A stretch of 64,000 bases of DNA from positions 1 through 64,000 of the forward strand of contig OZ220733.1 in the NCBI GenBank assembly GCA_965116875.1, written 5' to 3'. Below, one piece after another: positions 38,874-47,201 of the stretch. The notes beneath the pieces are model-generated. The model was not told where the DNA came from and searched no databases. It was given only the letters and a program-made list of their open reading frames with translations. Position 1 is the stretch's first letter; the number at the start of each line of letters is the position of its first letter. The position numbers and the translations under genes are program-made. Source of the DNA: Candidatus Latescibacterota bacterium. Lineage in GTDB: Bacteria; Latescibacterota; UBA2968; GCA-2709665.

Positions 38874-41800
38874 CTATCTGCTGGTGAGTCTGGAACCCTG
38901 ATGGAGTCCATGGATGATGTAGTCCGTAAGGGCCCGGATGACCACGTCGGTCGGCAGCACGAGCAGGCCGTCCTCCGGCTTTACCCCCTCAGGCAGATTC
39001 AGATAGGCGGCCATTTCCTCCGGGAGGTAGGTCATTTCATCGCCGAAGAACGTGGGCATCTTGGTACCCGGCTGAAGCTTCTGCGGATCCCACAGCCAGT
39101 CTCTGATCCACGCCGGTTTCAACCGCTCCCTGCCCAGCTTCAGGTCGGGCGCCCAGCTTGCAGGGTCGCCCGTGGGCTTGATATCACCCTGCTGGTGGCA
39201 GGTGAAACAGTTGTAGATGTCCGCGCTGAACAGCTTCTTCGCGCCGCTCAATTCCCGTGAACTCAACCTCTTGTGCACAAACGTGGCGTAGGGGAACTGC
39301 TCCTTGTCCAGCCGGGAGAAATAGGTAACCAGGTCGATGGCCTGCTGGTCTTCGAAACCGAACGTGGGCATCCGTACCTCGAGCCACGGACGGATCGGCT
39401 GCACGTTCTTCAGGAACGCGAAGAACCAGTCCGGCTGGACCTTCCGGCCCTCGCCGTTCAGCGATGGCGGCACGAAACCCACGGCGTCGGCGGCTGAAAC
39501 ATCCTCGGCTCCGTATGCCCTGACCAGCGGATCCTGGATGGCCCCGCCCTGATTCTCCACAACGTGGCAGCCTTTGCAGTTCCTGTCGTACGCCAGCCAC
39601 CGGCCCTTCTCGATATCCACTTCATCCGGGGACAGGCGTTTGATCGCGTCGGTGCCCGCCTGGCTCCGGTTCATGCTCAACAGGGCCGTCGTCACCGCGT
39701 GCGCGTCATCGTCGCTCAGACCGAACTGGGGCATGCGCAGCTTGTCGTCGAACAGCTTCACCTTTCCCTTGTCGAAGACCCTGGGCTGTTTGAGCTTTTT
39801 GTAGAACCAGTCGTGCCGGGTATACGGTATGGCGTCGGGATCGGTGTTGTAGGAACCCGGCTTCTTGGCCAGCAGACCGAAGTCCAGCTTGTCTACGTCC
39901 TTGCTGCCTTCCTCTGTCAGTTCCGTGCCGATGGGTTGCGCGTCCTCGAATCCCTGAATGAGGTGGCACCCGTAGCAACCCTGTCGGGAGATGATCTTTT
40001 CACCCAGCCAGATGTCCCGCTCGTGCCCGGACATCTGAGCCAGCCGTTCGTTCGCGGTCTTCACCGGCAACCTGCCTCGCAGGTAGTTCAGAACCAGATC
40101 GTCCCGCACCCGGGGATCCACCGGCGCAGCCTGCCGGGCTTCAAACTCGGTATTCCGAAGGGTGAGCAGATAGGCCGTAATGTCTGCCGCCTCCCGGTCG
40201 GTCAGCCGCAGATTCGGCATGCGGGTGTCCGGGAAATAGGCCGTGGGATCTTTCAGCCATGCGAAAAGCCATCCCGGGGACAGCTTGCTGCCCACGTCGT
40301 TCAGGTTCGGGCCGAAATTCCGCAGCCCGTACTCCTGGCCAAGCATGTCGTTGGCGCCCACCACGTGGCACGCTTTGCAACCCACCATTCCCACGAGACG
40401 CTCTCCGCGGCCGGCATCGCCCTGTACCGGCGGCGAGGGGTATTCGGGCCGTTCGGACTTGTCGAAGATATACGTCACAACGGCGTTGACCGCGGCCGTA
40501 TTGCGCGCGATATCCTCAGGACCGCTCACGTTGGCCAGGTCGAAAATCTTGGGCATCTTGGTGGATGGCCGGAACCCTTTGGGATCCCTCACCCACTTGA
40601 TGGTCCAGTCTCGATCCAGCTTCCCTGCCGCCTTGCGCAGGTCCGGACCGACCCTCCGCAGATCCTGCAGGGTGTGTTTCGCAATTTTGTGACAGCCGGC
40701 GCAACCCAGCGTCCGAACGAGATGGATGCCGCGATTCAGCCGGTCCGCCTCGGGTACGTCCACAACGCCGGCGTGGCATTGGGCGCACGTGGCTTCCACG
40801 TAGCGGCCGGGCAGCATCGGGTGGTCCCAATATTTCATCTTCTTCCAGCCGTAAAGCTTTTTCCAGCGGGCGGCTTCGACGTCGTCGCTCGGCGTATGCG
40901 CCGTATTCTTGAACGTGACGCCCCGGTCGCGACCGAGATGACACGTGGTGCATCCTGACTCGTCAATGGGATGAGGCGATCCGCTGCTCAGGAAAAGGTC
41001 CAGTCTGGGATGCGTGGAGAACGCCCTGGTGCGGCCGAGCCGGACATCATCGTCCGCGTAGACCGTTTCCATGTACGCCCGAAGCGTTTCATCCCTGAAC
41101 CAGCCGGATTCCGGATCGAGTTCGTAGCCCGGCCGATCGATGTTCACGTGACACGTTGTACATCGGTCCACCCGGGGAACCCGGGTAAAATTGAGTTCGT
41201 TCCGAAGGTCCGCCAGCACGACCTGCCGTACCTTAATGGAAGGATCGATAAAGTCAACCATCGGCAGGTTTCGGAACACATTGGGGAAACTGGGGACGAG
41301 ACCCGTCAACTTGCGCCTCAGGTTCTCTTCATCCTTGCGCAAGGTGCGCCGCCTGGACTCAAGCGCCTGTCGCTGCCCCGCCACCTCGTCGATGAACTTC
41401 TGCTGCGCCGCCTGCTTTTCCTCCACGGCCTCTCTGGCCAGCCGGAACTCGTAGATCCGGGCGTCCATGGCCTCCATCTCGGCCTTTTTCTTTGCCGCCG
41501 TATCGTCATGCCCGGCTTTGGCCGCGTCCTCGTACTCGAACTTGACCACGTCGTACTGGGCCTTTTCGAATTTCAATTTCTGATCGGCGCTGTACCATTC
41601 CGCCTGCGTAAGCCGTTTCAACTCGTCCGTTGCCGCATCGAATCGGTCCTGGTGCGCCTGAATTGCCGCCTCGATCCCCTTGAGTTCCTCCTCGACCGCC
41701 GTAAACGCGTCCTGGTCGACGTTCTGCTGCGCCAGCTTGATGTCCGCTTCGGTCTTGTAGGCCTCGAGCGCCATCGCTTCCTTCTGAATGCCCTTCCACT

Positions 41801-41927
41801 CGCGGTCGTAGTCGTCCCAGACCATCCAGAGTACGGAAAGAACCAGCACCACGCTGGACAGGGCGAAGATCATGTTCATTTTGTCTACATTGTAGACGAA
41901 GTCTATGAAGCGCTTCGGCTCATTCAT
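38874..41927 (-). CDS. Membrane-anchored octaheme cytochrome c with coiled-coil stalk
   Basis: Eight CxxCH (CTTCH x2, CAQCH, CAGCH, CKACH, CYGCH, CKGCH, CFTCH); N-terminal TM helix; long charged helical segment. Confidence 0.9.
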   Translation of the reverse strand: MNEPKRFIDFVYNVDKMNMIFALSSVVLVLSVLWMVWDDYDREWKGIQKEAMALEAYKTEADIKLAQQNVDQDAFTAVEEELKGIEAAIQAHQDRFDAATDELKRLTQAEWYSADQKLKFEKAQYDVVKFEYEDAAKAGHDDTAAKKKAEMEAMDARIYEFRLAREAVEEKQAAQQKFIDEVAGQRQALESRRRTLRKDEENLRRKLTGLVPSFPNVFRNLPMVDFIDPSIKVRQVVLADLRNELNFTRVPRVDRCTTCHVNIDRPGYELDPESGWFRDETLRAYMETVYADDDVRLGRTRAFSTHPRLDLFLSSGSPHPIDESGCTTCHLGRDRGVTFKNTAHTPSDDVEAARWKKLYGWKKMKYWDHPMLPGRYVEATCAQCHAGVVDVPEADRLNRGIHLVRTLGCAGCHKIAKHTLQDLRRVGPDLRKAAGKLDRDWTIKWVRDPKGFRPSTKMPKIFDLANVSGPEDIARNTAAVNAVVTYIFDKSERPEYPSPPVQGDAGRGERLVGMVGCKACHVVGANDMLGQEYGLRNFGPNLNDVGSKLSPGWLFAWLKDPTAYFPDTRMPNLRLTDREAADITAYLLTLRNTEFEARQAAPVDPRVRDDLVLNYLRGRLPVKTANERLAQMSGHERDIWLGEKIISRQGCYGCHLIQGFEDAQPIGTELTEEGSKDVDKLDFGLLAKKPGSYNTDPDAIPYTRHDWFYKKLKQPRVFDKGKVKLFDDKLRMPQFGLSDDDAHAVTTALLSMNRSQAGTDAIKRLSPDEVDIEKGRWLAYDRNCKGCHVVENQGGAIQDPLVRAYGAEDVSAADAVGFVPPSLNGEGRKVQPDWFFAFLKNVQPIRPWLEVRMPTFGFEDQQAIDLVTYFSRLDKEQFPYATFVHKRLSSRELSGAKKLFSADIYNCFTCHQQGDIKPTGDPASWAPDLKLGRERLKPAWIRDWLWDPQKLQPGTKMPTFFGDEMTYLPEEMAAYLNLPEGVKPEDGLLVLPTDVVIRALTDYIIHGLHQGSRLTSR

Positions 41928-42039
41928 CGGACGGCTCCAGGGAGGCAGCGCACACCCGAACACCGGACGTGCAACGCCACAAACCCCTTCACTTAATGCA
42001 CACGTTGCTGCGGCGGCGCCGGAGAATCAAAAAGGACCC

Positions 42040-43161: not shown

Positions 43162-43947
43162 CTACATTGGACCGGAAATCCCTCCGTCCTTTCGGACCCG
43201 CCAGAAGTGGACCGCCATGAGCACAGCCGCAACGAACGGGATGAACAGACAGTGAAGGACGTAAAACCTCAGCAGCGCGCCTTCCCCGACGAACCGCCCC
43301 CCCAACAGCGCGAATCGGGCGTCGTCGCCGGCGTGTACAAGATTGATGTCGCCAAGCACAAGAAACGCCGCGCCGGGCCCCTCGTGACCAAGAAACGGGG
43401 TTGCCCGCGCCATATTCGATCCGACCGTAATCGCCCAGATGGCGAGCTGATCCCAGGGCAACAGGTACCCGGTAAAGCTCAACAGCAGCGTCAGGAGAAG
43501 TAGAATGACCCCGATCGCCCAGTTGAATTCCCGGGGAGGTTTGTAGGAACCCGTCATAAACACGCGCAACATGTGCAGCCAGACGGTAATCACCATGGCG
43601 TGGGCGCCCCACCGGTGGATTTCCCGCATGATTCCCAGCGGCACCTGTTCGCCCAGGTCGATAATGTCCGTATAGGCGTATTCGAGCGTGGGCCGATAGT
43701 AGAACATGAGCAGAATGCCGGTTATGGTCTCGATCAGAAATATAAAAAAGGTGAGCCCACCCATGCACCACGTGTAGCGCACCCTGATTCCCGACTTCGG
43801 GGTCCGAACGGGATGAAGATGCAGGAAGACGTTCGTCAATACCACCTGCGCCCGGCCGCGCTCGTCTCTCGGCACGTCGTGCCGGAAGATGGACTTCCAT
43901 ATTTGAGAGCGTTTCGTCCTGTCCAGCAGGCCGGAAATCCTCGGCAT
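43162..43947 (-). CDS. petB: Cytochrome b6-like N-terminal subunit
   Basis: TWCMGG (heme ci Cys position), HRW...[16 protein letters not shown], helix-D His pair with 14 residues between, GISGPM end. Confidence 0.92.
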
Positions 43948-44029: not shown

Positions 44030-44977
44030 TCAGATCCGCAAAAAGGACTCCGGGTTGTCCCAGTGCCCTTTCTCGTACTGGAATTTCCGTGTCTTGTCCA
44101 CCAGTACCTGCCCGTCTTCGGCCAGGACGATGCGCGCCCTTTCCAGCGGACGTGGCGCGGGACCCTCGAAATTGATGCCAGACATATAAAAGCCGCTGCC
44201 GTGACACGGACATTTGAATTTCTGTTCGTTACCCAGCCAGTTGGGCGTACAACCCAGATGCGTGCAGACCGAAATGAGCGCGAACATGTCCTGTGTGGAC
44301 TTGACGATCCAGACGCTGAACTTGTCTTTCCACCGTTCGTCCACGCCCAGGTCGTAGTCTTCCGCAAACCCGATCTTGAAAGACTGAGGGGGCTCGAACA
44401 GCACATTCGGAAACAGAAAACGCCCGAATCCCAGGAGACCCGCCGCTGACGCGGCCGCAAAAGACGCCCAGGCCAGTGTCAGCCAGGTAAAAAACCCGCG
44501 GCGGGTGGTCATGCCGCCCTCGGCGACGGCTTGCGTCCGTTCCGGCCCGGGGCGGATTGCGGGCGGGGCCGGAGACGTCTGAACGATTACGCGCTCCGCG
44601 GCCGGCTCGTCGGTTTTCTGCGTCAACGCGCGAGCCGCGGCGGCCCGTTCCGCGGTGGACGCGGCCTTTTTGGCCGGCGCGGCGGACGGCGCCGATTTGC
44701 CGCCCCCGCGCGCCTTGCGCATCAATTCGGCCTTCGCCTTGGCGCGGGCGACGCGGTCCTGAATCTCGTCCAGGGACGAGAGATCCACTTCGGCGGCCCC
44801 GGAACCGTCTCCCGATTCCTCAGGGGCGCCCGCGGAAGCTCCGCCGGCCGGCGCCGCCGGGGCTTCACCCGCTGCAGCCTCACGGGCCTTTCGCAACGCC
44901 TCTGCTTTGGCCTTTGCCCTGGCTACCCGATCAGGGATTTCGTCAAATTCCGAAAGATCGATCTTCTCTTCCGACAT
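44030..44977 (-). CDS. petC: Rieske [2Fe-2S] subunit with ~155-aa N-terminal extension
   Basis: CTHLGC and CPCHGS boxes, GPAPRPL; twin-arginine TRRGFF at residues 158-163 followed by a TM helix. Confidence 0.92.
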   Translation of the reverse strand: MSEEKIDLSEFDEIPDRVARAKAKAEALRKAREAAAGEAPAAPAGGASAGAPEESGDGSGAAEVDLSSLDEIQDRVARAKAKAELMRKARGGGKSAPSAAPAKKAASTAERAAAARALTQKTDEPAAERVIVQTSPAPPAIRPGPERTQAVAEGGMTTRRGFFTWLTLAWASFAAASAAGLLGFGRFLFPNVLFEPPQSFKIGFAEDYDLGVDERWKDKFSVWIVKSTQDMFALISVCTHLGCTPNWLGNEQKFKCPCHGSGFYMSGINFEGPAPRPLERARIVLAEDGQVLVDKTRKFQYEKGHWDNPESFLRI

Positions 44978-45100
44978 GGCATACCCCGGAAACCGGCCTG
45001 GCGGTCTCGGATCGGAAATTTGTCAGCTATGGATAATATGCGATATAAGTTAAAAAAATACCGGAAATTGCATCATTTACGACGCGGAAGACACCGCGCC

Positions 45101-45129
45101 AATATATCCAAACCACCCCGGAATGTCAA
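45101..45129 (-). promoter_or_regulatory. Sigma70-type promoter for the respiratory cluster
   Basis: TTGACA (45129-45124) N17 TATATT (45106-45101). Confidence 0.7.
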
Positions 45130-45235
45130 GCGGGATTTTCTCCAGATTCGCTTCTTCCGGATCCAAGGAAAAAGGGACCCGAAAAGCGCCCGATCGGGCC
45201 GGATCCCCCATTGAAATTCCGTCGATTCCTGCCGT

Positions 45236-46144
45236 TCATTTCTCTTCCCAGCCATTCAGCACTTCAATCGCCGCCTGTCGGACCCGCAGGTCCGGGTCCT
45301 GATTGCGCAGCCTCTGCAGCGAGGGGGCCAGCGACGCCGCGTTGAGAATACCCACCGCCCTGATCGCTTCGACCAGGATATTCCGCCTCCCCTCTCCGCT
45401 TATCCGGTCGAACCCTTCGAGGTATCCGGGGCTCAGTATCTCTCCCAGCACCTCCAGGCCCGCGCTGTTTCCCGCTCCGGCCAATTGCAGGGCGGCGTTC
45501 CAGCGAACATCGGGCGCACGGTCGTGAAGCGCTCGCTCCAGCGCGGGTGGCGCCCGGGGATCGTCCAGTCCGCCAAGGGCGTATACTGCGGCCTTGCGCA
45601 ATCCCGCATCGTCGTTCGACGCGATCCGGATCAGGTGCGGCACGGCGTCCGGGTTATCCTGCGCCCGGAGCGAAAACATCGCATTGATCCGTGTTTCGTC
45701 GTCGGGGTCGTCCAGCGCGGCGATCAGAACGCCGACGAGTTCGGGATCCCGTACCCTTCCCATGGCCGCGGCCAGAAAGCGCCTGACGCGAGGGTCGTCC
45801 GAACGGGAAGCCTCGAACACGCGGATCAACTCTCCAACGAACCTGCGGCCAATCCGTCCTTCGCGCTGCTCCTGGTCCAGCACGGTGGCCAGTTCGTACG
45901 CGGCCTGCCACCTGCTGTTGATCCCGCCCACCCGAATCGTATTGAGATAGTCCTCCGCCGTTTTTCGCTCGACCGTCAACAAACCCAATCCCAGATAGAT
46001 CGCGAGCCCGACCAGAATGATCGCCACGGGAAAAATGACGAACTGCGAGACCAGTCTCGCCCGCGAGACGTCCGCGTCCGAAACCGGGGCGGTGGCGTCT
46101 TCGGCGATTTTTCTGAGTTCCTCATCGGGAGTCGGTTGGTCCAT
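45236..46144 (-). CDS. Membrane-anchored HEAT-repeat protein
   Basis: One TM helix then repeats such as DDPRVRRFLAAAMG, DAGLRKAAVYALG, APDVRWNAALQL, DLRVRQAAIEVL. Confidence 0.85.
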   Translation of the reverse strand: MDQPTPDEELRKIAEDATAPVSDADVSRARLVSQFVIFPVAIILVGLAIYLGLGLLTVERKTAEDYLNTIRVGGINSRWQAAYELATVLDQEQREGRIGRRFVGELIRVFEASRSDDPRVRRFLAAAMGRVRDPELVGVLIAALDDPDDETRINAMFSLRAQDNPDAVPHLIRIASNDDAGLRKAAVYALGGLDDPRAPPALERALHDRAPDVRWNAALQLAGAGNSAGLEVLGEILSPGYLEGFDRISGEGRRNILVEAIRAVGILNAASLAPSLQRLRNQDPDLRVRQAAIEVLNGWEEK

Positions 46145-46212
46145 GCAACAACCTCTGTCTCGAAAAATGACTGATGTTTCTCTTCAGGCCAATCCGAAAG
46201 TACACGAGGTCC

Positions 46213-46242
46213 AATATAACCAGAGGCCGCACACGCTGTCAA
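46213..46242 (-). promoter_or_regulatory. Sigma70-type promoter for the HEAT gene
   Basis: TTGACA (46242-46237) N18 TATATT. Confidence 0.55.
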
Positions 46243-46352
46243 GATCGGTGTCCCGTCACGAAGTTTGCTCCGGCCCGGCCTTCCGCCTTGACCGCCGCTT
46301 TTTCGCTCGCGCCCGGGAACTCACCGGTAATTTTAAAACAACCTCTTACTCC

Positions 46353-46381
46353 TTGACAACCCGCGGGAAAGACCTTATTTT
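46353..46381 (+). promoter_or_regulatory. Sigma70-type promoter for the ferredoxin gene
   Basis: TTGACA (46353-46358) N17 TATTTT. Confidence 0.5.
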
Positions 46382-46440
46382 AGCCCTGAATCATCACGCG
46401 AAACGCAAGCACATAGCGCACCACAGGAGATCGCGGCACA

Positions 46441-47175
46441 ATGAACGTCGACCTTACCCAGTTCGATCATATTTCCGATCGCGTGGCGCGGGCCAGGGCC
46501 AAGGCCGAGGCCATGCGGAAAGCCAAAGAAGGCGCCGGCGACGCCGATGAGGCCGCGCCCGATGCTGCCGGCGCGGAGCTGGAAGCCGCCGCCGCTCCCG
46601 TTGAAGTCGAAGCGGAGCCGGCCGGCCTGACCATACTGGAGTTCAGGCCCGGAATCCATTTCAAGTTGAACGGACGGGCCGGGCGCACAGTGGGCATCCG
46701 TTACGACATGGTCAGTTTCGTCTACGACGACGACCCCGACCAGCTCGTGACCGCGGACCGTTATCGCCTCAGCCACGCCCACGCCGAGGGCACGCTGGAA
46801 TTCGCCCCGAAGTCAGAGGTCTACCGTCCGGAGCGCGTCTCGAGAAAAGAACGCGTCGATTACCACGAACACCTCTGGCTGGAGTCCCGCTCCGGCATGA
46901 CGGCCAAGAAGAAACGGCCGCGGCATATCGCCATTATCAATCCGGACTATTGCACCGGCTGCAATGCATGCATCGAAGTCTGCCCGACGGACTGCATCGA
47001 GGAAGTCGACGTGGCCGACGCGGGGCTGGACGGTATCGGCACGTTCTGCGAAGTCCGCCTGGAAGACTGTATCGGCTGCATTCAATGCGTGCATATCTGC
47101 CCGTGGGAAGCCATCGAAATGGTGGATACCCAGCAGGTTGAAGAGGCATACGGTATCCCCGCAGGGACGTTGTAG
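46441..47175 (+). CDS. Multidomain 2x[4Fe-4S] ferredoxin-like protein
   Basis: CTGCNACIEVCP and CIGCIQCVHICP; N-terminal motif shared with the Rieske protein; AGGAG RBS. Confidence 0.88.
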   Translation: MNVDLTQFDHISDRVARARAKAEAMRKAKEGAGDADEAAPDAAGAELEAAAAPVEVEAEPAGLTILEFRPGIHFKLNGRAGRTVGIRYDMVSFVYDDDPDQLVTADRYRLSHAHAEGTLEFAPKSEVYRPERVSRKERVDYHEHLWLESRSGMTAKKKRPRHIAIINPDYCTGCNACIEVCPTDCIEEVDVADAGLDGIGTFCEVRLEDCIGCIQCVHICPWEAIEMVDTQQVEEAYGIPAGTL

Positions 47176-47201
47176 TCCACGAACGTCCATGAATCAAATG
47201 G

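Follow-up and report, generated by a model that had tools for sequence, protein, structure and literature searches.

We analysed a 64,000-nucleotide stretch of Candidatus (Ca.) Latescibacterota DNA (GenBank assembly GCA_965116875.1, contig OZ220733.1, positions 1 to 64,000), referred to here as the window. Two neighbouring genes in it carry the same 27-amino-acid (aa) tag: the gene for the Rieske [2Fe-2S] subunit of a cytochrome bc complex, with two copies, and the gene for a divergent 2x[4Fe-4S] protein (the Fe-S protein), with one. The shared tag is likely to be an as yet undescribed handle through which partners in electron transfer are brought together. As to how, we hold it to be about an even call that the tag acts as a tethered cytoplasmic docking module, linking the Fe-S protein as an electron-entry protein to the bc complex; that the tag binds, and what it touches, are the parts of this proposal that we infer.

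Sequence, conservation and predicted fold of the tag

The positions and residue numbers which the first-pass annotation, made from the bare sequence, had assigned to the three copies proved exact. It had also described the copies as alike in protein and divergent at synonymous sites, and this is borne out by the codon comparison. Compared in pairs, the copies are identical at 53/81, 53/81 and 49/81 DNA positions, and per 27 tag codons the copy pairs show 13-15 that differ only synonymously and 6-8 that alter the residue. The linkers that follow the tag copies are unrelated to each other (34-37 of 90 bases identical without gaps). As judged from these sequence comparisons, the tag peptide, not the tag DNA, is under purifying selection. 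An Ala/Pro/Glu linker had been reported after each copy; the linkers are indeed of low complexity, but that after the second Rieske copy is rich in Ala, Pro and Lys and not in Glu.

When the window's own genome (5.45 Mb, 112,277 six-frame pieces) was searched with a profile of the three copies, only these two open reading frames (ORFs) were matched (E 2.9e-34 and 1.6e-17), the next hit having an E-value of 0.87. Among 39 tags from 15 loci of three families, eight columns are invariant (D2, L3, I9, D11, R12, R15, A16 and K19) and six more are nearly invariant. The copies cluster by their position and not by genome, which argues that they are old. The second Rieske copy was found in genera g1, g5, g9 and g11 and is missing from single-copy Rieske proteins.

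In an AlphaFold2 model of the Fe-S protein (14-row alignment, mean predicted local distance difference test score (pLDDT) 54), the tag consists of a short helix (residues 6-8) and a long helix (residues 14-30), with pLDDT values of about 67-72. The long helix has a single conserved face, made up of D11, R12, R15, A16 and K19 plus A18, A22 and A26. Read by eye, L3, F6, I9, V13, A16, A20 and M23 follow each other at a spacing of 3-4, as a hydrophobic seam in a self-associating coiled coil or zipper would; the most conserved face is nevertheless basic, and the second half of the tag contains seven basic residues.

The tag matches no named domain, nor had the first-pass annotation recognised it as one, with nothing found in Pfam, NCBIfam or the PDB sequences. 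For Rieske residues 1-100 and Fe-S protein residues 1-40, Pfam returned only DUF6243 (E 0.094, 13.4 bits against a cut-off of 25) and NCBIfam returned none. On 12 other tag carriers the tag was likewise without match, and the best E-value of the tag profile against PDB sequences was 3.5. A description of the tag was not found in the literature searched, which included PMC5600118, PMC10068793 and PMC5449189, subscription journals being largely outside its coverage. A resemblance to PCP_red (PF08369) was considered and rejected: its six-frame search of the own genome at E up to 10 matched two unrelated places, none at the tags.

Distribution within the Latescibacterota

All genomes compared are metagenome-assembled genomes (MAGs); that of the window is 97.7% complete. 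The tag is carried by 30 of the 168 genomes of Ca. Latescibacterota: all 21 of family f1 plus the window's genome, 6/31 of family f2, 2/3 of family f3 and 0/113 of eleven other families. Whether Rieske and Fe-S tags occur together in this genome and in related MAGs had been raised as a question for a profile search, and they do so without exception. In 30/30 tagged genomes the tag is present on both the Rieske protein and the partner encoded by the Fe-S gene, with 2-3 copies per genome, 1.4-3 kb apart and on opposite strands. The core of the Fe-S protein without its tag was found in exactly those 30 genomes; three further genomes match the core only over its cluster-binding part (E 1e-13 to 1e-17). 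A common layout was seen in all 14 fetched loci, with the Fe-S gene divergent from a HEAT-Rieske-b6-subunit IV-multiheme cytochrome c gene cluster. The Rieske protein of locus L022 was included in the comparisons of start positions and orthologues and stands outside the locus-layout table.

Orthologous Rieske genes (56-64% identical) of genomes G048, G049, G050 and G071, which belong to other families, have neither the tag nor an adjacent partner. In the case of G048 (L035 8792-9859, minus strand), the same cytoplasmic extension contains a different two-copy module of about 45 aa, with Ala/Pro linkers between. A second carrier of this module was sought in the G048 genome with that query and none was found; Pfam gave only faint hints (Ribosomal_S3_C, E 1e-4 and below the cut-off; Rho_N, E 0.038). 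This repeat may be an alternative docking module. In the second operon of genome G079 (L039 8171-13200, plus strand), which encodes tag-less Rieske, b6 and subunit IV proteins, a gene for an 85-aa 2x[4Fe-4S] ferredoxin lies between those for subunit IV and a multi-heme cytochrome c. Taken with the actinobacterial operon described below, which opens with a small ferredoxin gene, this suggests that ferredoxins encoded in the operon may be more widespread among such b6-type complexes.

Tagged proteins in Actinomycetota and in a third NuoI group

Searched exhaustively with a profile, 1.84 billion representatives yielded only 29 matches with an E-value of 0.001 or lower. When one genome per species was scanned with a pattern, 36 loci were identified, 29 of the Latescibacterota type and seven from Actinomycetota MAGs. 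In the latter the tag is located at the C-terminus of a NuoI-type subunit, after an Ala/Pro linker and in one or two copies. This carrier reaches 89.6 bits with the NuoI model TIGR01971, which is below the cut-off of 113.05 though its gene is placed between nuoH and nuoJ. Four such genomes were searched for a second carrier, and 4/4 had one; in 3/4 fetched loci the second carrier is subunit IV (PF00032), which bears the tag at its very N-terminus, and the search pattern was without match in the fourth, L079. The genes of the tagged operon are arranged as ferredoxin-cytochrome b6-subunit IV-Rieske-cytochrome c. Of the 17 genomes in the order of Actinomycetota to which these MAGs belong, 16 are tagged, and in 11 of these the tag occurs at two distinct places. 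Profile-profile comparison relates the actinobacterial tags to those of the Latescibacterota (probability 96.8%, E 2e-10, 22 columns). The pairing of a tag-bearing bc subunit with a tag-bearing 2x[4Fe-4S] protein recurs independently in this second phylum, Actinomycetota; the pattern arose, or was retained, in two distant phyla.

In genome G169 two nuo clusters lie in tandem, with a polyprenyl synthetase gene between them (L098, G169:C8:401000-420500). The canonical cluster (…F, G, H, I, J, K, L, M, N) encodes an untagged NuoI of 189 aa, and the second one, A-B-C-H-I-J-K-L-M, encodes the tagged NuoI and is without D, E, F and G. A further NuoD-like gene is present on another contig.

A third, metagenomic group of NuoI proteins has a helical C-terminal domain of 63 aa whose first half is the tag (hhalign against the window tag: probability 97.5%, E 7.7e-12, 33 columns). 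In the reciprocal direction, a profile search with this domain returned, within the Latescibacterota, only the 30 tagged genomes. The domain was modelled as four helices (pLDDT 80). Its best structural neighbour (2ip6_A, Z 6.2, root-mean-square deviation (rmsd) 3.3, 67 aligned) is a match of the generic kind for a small helical bundle, its profile matched only designed repeat proteins and polycystin-2 among PDB sequences (E 0.003 or weaker), and the protein atlas gave no usable match for it. The nuo clusters of this group read B-C-D-H-I(tag)-J-K (L082) and C-D-H-I(tag)-J (L085), and E, F and G are absent from both loci with upstream sequence (2/2). Together with G169, these clusters place the tagged NuoI in complex I variants without the NADH-input module. 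The tag on the actinobacterial subunit IV and NuoI, and in the third NuoI group, is new here.

For a census of carriers, 8000 proteins clustered at 90% were scored, of which 419 match at E up to 0.001; classes were assigned for the best 120 of these 419. Among these 120 there are 37 Rieske proteins, the tags being all N-terminal (two copies in 21, one copy in 16), and 37 short 2x[4Fe-4S] proteins with one N-terminal copy each. NuoI-type proteins of more than 300 aa account for 20, with the tag C-terminal in 19 and unplaced by the pattern in one, and subunit IV for a single one. About 14 of the other 25 are partners of the tag-barrel-membrane type described below, and the remainder are fragments. 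Full-length carriers outside these five classes were not found among the best 120 of 419.

The Rieske protein and its start codon

In the Rieske protein, a cytoplasmic N-terminal extension of 155 aa leads up to the twin-arginine motif TRRGFF; a membrane helix comes next, and then the Rieske domain (PF00355, 32.5 bits; cut-off 20.3). Signals of the twin-arginine translocation (Tat) pathway combine such a motif with a hydrophobic helix. A signal anchor of this kind is present as 'TTRRGFFTWLTLAWASFAAASAAGLLGF', with a core that is invariant in six orthologues. With the NCBIfam model NF045928 (cyanobacterial/plastid PetC equivalog) the protein reaches 66.4 bits, below the cut-off of 250. By its sequence features the window Rieske protein is a subunit of a b6f-type complex and no PetC equivalog. 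In an alignment of six two-copy orthologues, 'AAAARALT' and 'VIVQTSPAPPAIRPGP' (just before the Tat motif) form invariant columns. The tag profile matches 'AAAARALT' in relatives, faintly and below threshold; this stretch may be what is left of a third tag. The actinobacterial subunit IV has, beyond its linker, a second stretch of comparable kind, 'ERQARVAAAMAKSG'.

The first-pass annotation had cautioned that the Rieske protein might start at M156 (44512), in which case the tag would never be translated. Although 'MTTRRGFF' would give a normal Tat signal, this caveat does not hold, because the 155 upstream codons are kept as protein across three families, because M156 is replaced by Ile in one of the six aligned two-copy orthologues, and because all three long ORFs are preceded by promoter-like sites. 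In 14/14 related Rieske genes an ATG lies 3-6 residues ahead of the tag, and in 13 related Fe-S genes the likely start lies 2-4 residues ahead of it. The promoter scan, in which only consensus matches were counted, gave 4 sites against 0.4 expected. Since the near-consensus site of the Rieske ORF is located in the 258-base gap between the HEAT and Rieske genes (44978-45235, minus strand), the Rieske operon may be transcribed apart from the HEAT gene. In one RNA-library run (X1, share of words 0.08), a library that may hold DNA, a contig of 153 bases is identical to 44893-45045, comprising tag copy 1 and the leader; further contigs of this run cover 44361-44580 and 47044-47191.

The tagged partner protein

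The Fe-S protein is composed of the tag, an acidic linker, a small beta barrel and the Fe-S domain. The linker has a net charge of -9 in the window protein and of -1 to -9 over 14 aligned homologues. The Fe-S domain is strongly acidic in 14/14 homologues (net charge -5 to -10, pI 4.1-4.9). Structural matches of the barrel are weak and generic, the best being 7pik_A (Z 6.9, rmsd 2.5, 66 aligned) and CarD 4l5g_A (Z 6.0, rmsd 1.8, 53 aligned); many other Tudor, CarD and KOW entries have Z 4.5-6, and even the best value is within the range that the structure-search tool calls a common arrangement. With TIGR01971 (NuoI) the Fe-S protein scores 31.7 bits, below the cut-off of 113.05, and it is not among the four own-genome matches to this model at E up to 1e-5. 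The two NuoI-like genes of the own genome are untagged.

In families f1 and f2, barrel and Fe-S domain are fused in a partner without membrane helix. In family f3, where the Rieske protein is single-tagged, the divergent gene codes for a pair of tags, a linker, the barrel and, at the C-terminus, two membrane helices; the 2x[4Fe-4S] domain has a gene of its own there, which is untagged and lies directly downstream of this tag-barrel-membrane gene. By the usual logic of gene fusions, this fusion/split pattern suggests that the tag-barrel part and the Fe-S domain work together.

Proposed mechanism and alternative explanations

According to our proposal, the tag would be a tiny helix-turn-helix with a short helix 'DLSxF' and a long helix starting from 'DRVARAKAK', as in the model. 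It would hang on a flexible Ala/Pro-rich line from the cytoplasm-facing terminus of the b6-type complex, and likewise from the cytoplasmic 2x[4Fe-4S] electron-entry protein. Through the tag, the Fe-S protein may be retained on the n-side of the complex as a peripheral subunit that is only loosely bound, close to heme ci and to the site of quinone reduction, and this tethering would let low-potential electrons pass between the Fe-S protein and the bc complex. As the preferred contact we envisage the invariant basic ridge (R12, R15 and K19, flanked by small Ala residues) against the acidic Fe-S domain, on the grounds that the two charges are complementary, that the partner is fused in some families and split in another, and that small ferredoxins without a tag are encoded nearby. 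Direct tag-to-tag pairing would be a second option.

Tethered docking is favoured by the strict co-occurrence of the tag on both partners in the tagged genomes (30/30), by its confinement to a few carrier classes among the best 120 of 419 matches, and by the tagged NuoI proteins that are without the usual electron-input module. The terminal position of the tag, and linkers that are predicted to be disordered (pLDDT 31-42) and are variable in length, argue for a swinging tether. In all carriers the tag faces the cytoplasm, as had been expected for the Rieske extension: it precedes the Tat motif and membrane helix of the Rieske protein, and the Fe-S protein has no signal peptide. NuoI is a subunit of the peripheral arm of complex I, and the N-terminus of subunit IV is on the n-side in b6f complexes. 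The tether originally suggested is supported in part: selection on the peptide, cytoplasmic placement, co-occurrence on both partners and recurrence in Actinomycetota stand, and the contact itself and any part in ferredoxin-dependent cyclic electron flow are conjecture.

Several observations weigh against this proposal. The Rieske tag and the partner tag of a genome covary weakly (mean identity 0.772 within a genome and 0.750 between genera, reached by 136/5000 permutations), and this covariation partly reflects lineage. The tagged partner of family f3 is membrane-anchored, so the tag is not needed just for membrane recruitment. In the third group only NuoI carriers were found in 8/8 metagenome loci, by search patterns that are NuoI-specific. 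Matched tags are not the sole solution, because the Rieske protein of G048 has a different module and no second carrier was found there. Moreover, a direct electron path from NuoI to a bc complex has no obvious energetic rationale. When the double-tagged Rieske segment 1-96 and the Fe-S protein segment 1-40 were paired in a complex prediction, without controls, the score was 0.00 against a mark of 0.32, which counts neither way.

The main rival, in our view rather unlikely as a general explanation, is that each tagged protein separately captures the same untagged soluble partner (such as a general acidic ferredoxin or flavodoxin, or a dehydrogenase) and that the tagged proteins do not capture one another. 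The tag would then mark quinone-reducing machines that are fed low-potential electrons, namely the n-side of bc complexes with heme ci and complex I without NuoEFG. The tagged NuoI in clusters without E, F and G (G169 and the 2/2 third-group loci with upstream sequence) would fit this, as would the untagged canonical NuoI in the same G169 genome, a conserved face that is basic and suited to an acidic carrier, the untagged small 2x[4Fe-4S] protein encoded next door in f3 and in the actinobacterial operon, and the ferredoxin-dependent complex I of cyanobacteria with its SH3-like docking subunit. For the actinobacterial case, the NuoEFG-less context and the energetics of a NuoI-bc path speak in favour of a shared carrier. 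It would leave unexplained, however, why the Rieske protein is tagged only where a dedicated tagged partner exists and why the ferredoxin-type partner itself bears the tag, and a candidate for the soluble carrier was not identified; the two NuoI-like genes of the own genome are untagged. We regard it as improbable that a chaperone, protease or positioning system reads the tag at or before assembly, without any role in electron transfer. A terminal, exposed tag on a disordered linker would be suited to this; the Rieske tag, unusually placed about 150 residues before the Tat signal, might need holding, and the HEAT protein of the locus has no assigned function. Yet the carriers differ in cofactor and export route (Tat-dependent Rieske, cofactor-free subunit IV, cytoplasmic NuoI, and a partner that is soluble or membrane-anchored), the tag is N-terminal on some and C-terminal on others, and the own genome has only two tagged proteins. 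A signal for Fe-S insertion or Tat proofreading in particular is disfavoured, as the cofactor-free subunit IV and the C-terminal tail of NuoI bear the tag.

Binding of the Lys/Arg/Ala-rich helix and the 'PAKKA' stretches of the Rieske linker to acidic lipids, nucleic acid or polyphosphate appears very unlikely. The seven basic residues in the second half of the tag and the 'APAKKAPAKKA'-type repeats in the linkers of relatives would be in line with a polyanion ligand. On the other hand, the basic residues lie all round the helix and the hydrophobic ones make no membrane-seeking (amphipathic) face, three invariant Asp residues are found in the first half of the tag, most carriers are membrane proteins already, and their limitation to two functional classes is not expected for a generic binder. 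Targeting to microcompartments is hardly credible, even if the tag has the general shape of an encapsulation peptide and the own genome encodes shell proteins (8 PF00936 matches). Shell genes occur in 152/168 genomes of the phylum, that is, in 30/30 tagged but also in 122/138 untagged ones, and in 0/5 tagged actinobacterial MAGs; furthermore, three of the carriers (Rieske protein, subunit IV, f3 partner) are integral to the membrane. The shell genes of the own genome form two loci (C1:826227-834013 and 3878226-3879910), one of which has six tandem bacterial microcompartment (BMC) domains in two open frames. Targeting to encapsulins was rejected, no encapsulin having been found in the window's genome.

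We advance with due reserve, as a possibility more doubtful than the docking proposal itself, that the tag serves b6-type complexes with heme ci and complex I without NuoEFG as a common handle, either for sharing one dedicated 2x[4Fe-4S] carrier of low potential or for zipping into a single assembly. If true, non-phototrophic bacteria would possess a ferredoxin-linked module for quinone reduction that had gone unrecognised, and the missing electron-input partner of NuoEFG-less complex I would be identified in at least two lineages. A handle of 27 residues makes two questions testable: which partners are used by heme ci and the n-side in non-photosynthetic b6-type complexes, and from which source complex I variants without the NADH module NuoEFG obtain their electrons. 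Since the tag marks both machines in two or three distant lineages, peptide pull-downs or structures of tagged complexes could name the partner.

Other genes of the locus

On the minus strand, the HEAT-repeat protein gene is followed by those for Rieske, cytochrome b6, an enlarged subunit IV and a multi-heme cytochrome c; the Fe-S gene is divergent on the plus strand (Table 1). Cytochrome b is of the split type, with a four-helix b6 (PF00033) and a separate subunit IV (PF00032). The first-pass annotation had drawn on b6f-type complexes with heme ci. In agreement with this, 'WCMGG' supplies the CxGG-type Cys near the N-terminus of b6 that is expected for covalent heme ci/cn, which is thus predicted here; the CxGG motif is named in PMC5600118. 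In the 1029-aa cytochrome c, an N-terminal membrane helix is separated from the heme domains by a charged segment, some 200 residues long and probably coiled (faint Trimer_CC match, E 0.063).

The HEAT gene is found at this place in 14/14 tagged loci. Its product, encoded between the two tagged genes, had been named with PetB and subunit IV for modelling as partner of the tag. It may be a receptor, but is a weaker candidate than assumed, as the G048 operon, which is tag-less, also has a HEAT gene downstream. No HEAT gene was seen among the ORFs listed near the tagged operon of the Actinomycetota, which counts against HEAT as receptor as well.

Between the HEAT and Fe-S genes lies an intergenic interspersed repeat (46283-46346) with about 95 other copies of 58-66 bases in the genome, at 94-98% identity (96 blastn hits including itself). 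It bears promoter-like hexamers; its depth is 290-1726 in two DNA-type runs, and its flanks are many and different.

Table 1. Features of the tagged bc locus, in coordinates of the window.
Feature	Position	Strand	Details
Tag copy 1 on Rieske protein	44882..44962	-	residues 6-32; profile match 62.3 bits; orthologous copy in 14/14 related loci
Tag copy 2 on Rieske protein	44708..44788	-	residues 64-90; profile match 62.4 bits
Tag copy on Fe-S protein	46447..46527	+	residues 3-29; profile match 64.7 bits
Rieske [2Fe-2S] subunit, 315 aa	44030..44977	-	Pfam PF00355 at residues 219-279, E 8.1e-08
Inter-tag linker of Rieske protein	44789..44881	-	Ala/Pro/Gly/Glu low-complexity; length and sequence differ among genomes
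Second Rieske linker	44513..44707	-	Ala/Pro/Lys-rich, 'APAKKA'; includes conserved 'AAAARALT' and 'VIVQTSPAPPAIRPGP' upstream of Tat motif
Promoter-like site before long Rieske ORF	45101..45129	-	TTGACA, 17-base spacer, TATATT; consensus match only (11/12)
Promoter-like site before Fe-S gene	46353..46381	+	TTGACA, 17-base spacer, TATTTT; consensus match only
Tagged 2x[4Fe-4S] protein, 244 aa	46441..47175	+	Pfam Fer4 families; without signal peptide or membrane helix
Acidic Ala/Pro/Glu/Asp linker, residues 30-62	46528..46626	+	predicted disordered, pLDDT 31-42
Small beta barrel, putatively SH3/Tudor-like, residues 63-125	46627..46815	+	pLDDT 77-84 (about residues 63-122)
Acidic 2x[4Fe-4S] ferredoxin-type domain, residues 156-244	46906..47172	+	Pfam Fer4_21, Fer4, Fer4_7; net charge -10, pI 4.3
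HEAT-repeat protein, one N-terminal membrane helix	45236..46144	-	Pfam HEAT_2, E 3.7e-39; between the two tagged genes
Cytochrome b6-type subunit	43162..43947	-	Pfam PF00033, E 2.4e-41; 'WCMGG' (CxGG) motif
Subunit IV (PetD-like), enlarged to 358 aa	42040..43116	-	Pfam PF00032, E 1.8e-08
Multi-heme cytochrome c, 1029 aa, last operon gene	38874..41963	-	Pfam Cytochrom_C, Cytochrome_CBB3, FixO, others; syntenic in related loci

Comparison with known systems

The closest relative of the window tag is the domain of the third NuoI group, which is homologous over the whole tag. It starts in the same way with a short and a long helix, 'DLSxLNxIxDRVxRxKAK', and is likewise joined by a low-complexity linker to a 2x[4Fe-4S] subunit. 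It differs in having two more helices that complete a compact bundle, whereas the window tag ends after helix two. The second half of this helix is charged in the window tag and hydrophobic in the third-group domain. Furthermore, the latter is C-terminal on NuoI, and NuoI proteins are the only carriers found for that group with the NuoI-specific search patterns.

In the E2 subunit of 2-oxoacid dehydrogenases, the peripheral-subunit-binding domain is a tiny helical domain on flexible Ala/Pro-rich swinging arms, sometimes repeated, with the sole role of docking a partner enzyme. The tag resembles it in working style but not in sequence (no Pfam match on the tag at E up to 0.1), and unlike the E2 domain it sits in membrane respiratory complexes and on both partners. 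Docking by the tag would add a module of the swinging-arm style to respiratory membrane complexes, for which none was described in the literature searched. Microcompartment encapsulation peptides, terminal helices of about 20 residues with a poorly conserved linker, are similar to the tag in shape; the carriers described here are, however, membrane proteins, and shell genes do not follow the tag.

Photosynthetic complex I, which is without NuoEFG, takes up electrons at NuoI/NdhI, aided in cyanobacteria by the small SH3-like NdhS and by basic residues. The window partner would combine both elements, a putatively SH3/Tudor-like barrel and a 2x[4Fe-4S] domain, in one protein. Its barrel match is generic (Z 4.5-6.9), though, with NdhS not among the 50 matches listed; its Fe-S domain stays under the NuoI cut-off, and its gene adjoins the bc complex and not complex I.

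Known redox partners of b6f or Rieske/cytochrome b complexes are ferredoxin-NADP reductase (FNR) on the chloroplast b6f complex and the NAD(P)-binding Fe-S subunits in planctomycete bc operons, both cited in PMC5600118. What the arrangement proposed here would have in common with them is a redox protein of low potential, cytoplasmic or stromal, that is associated with the n-side of a complex of the heme-ci type. FNR and the planctomycete subunits are flavoproteins or large oxidoreductases, and a peptide tag common to both sides is not described in their case, whereas the link in the window would be made by a repeated 27-aa tag on both sides.

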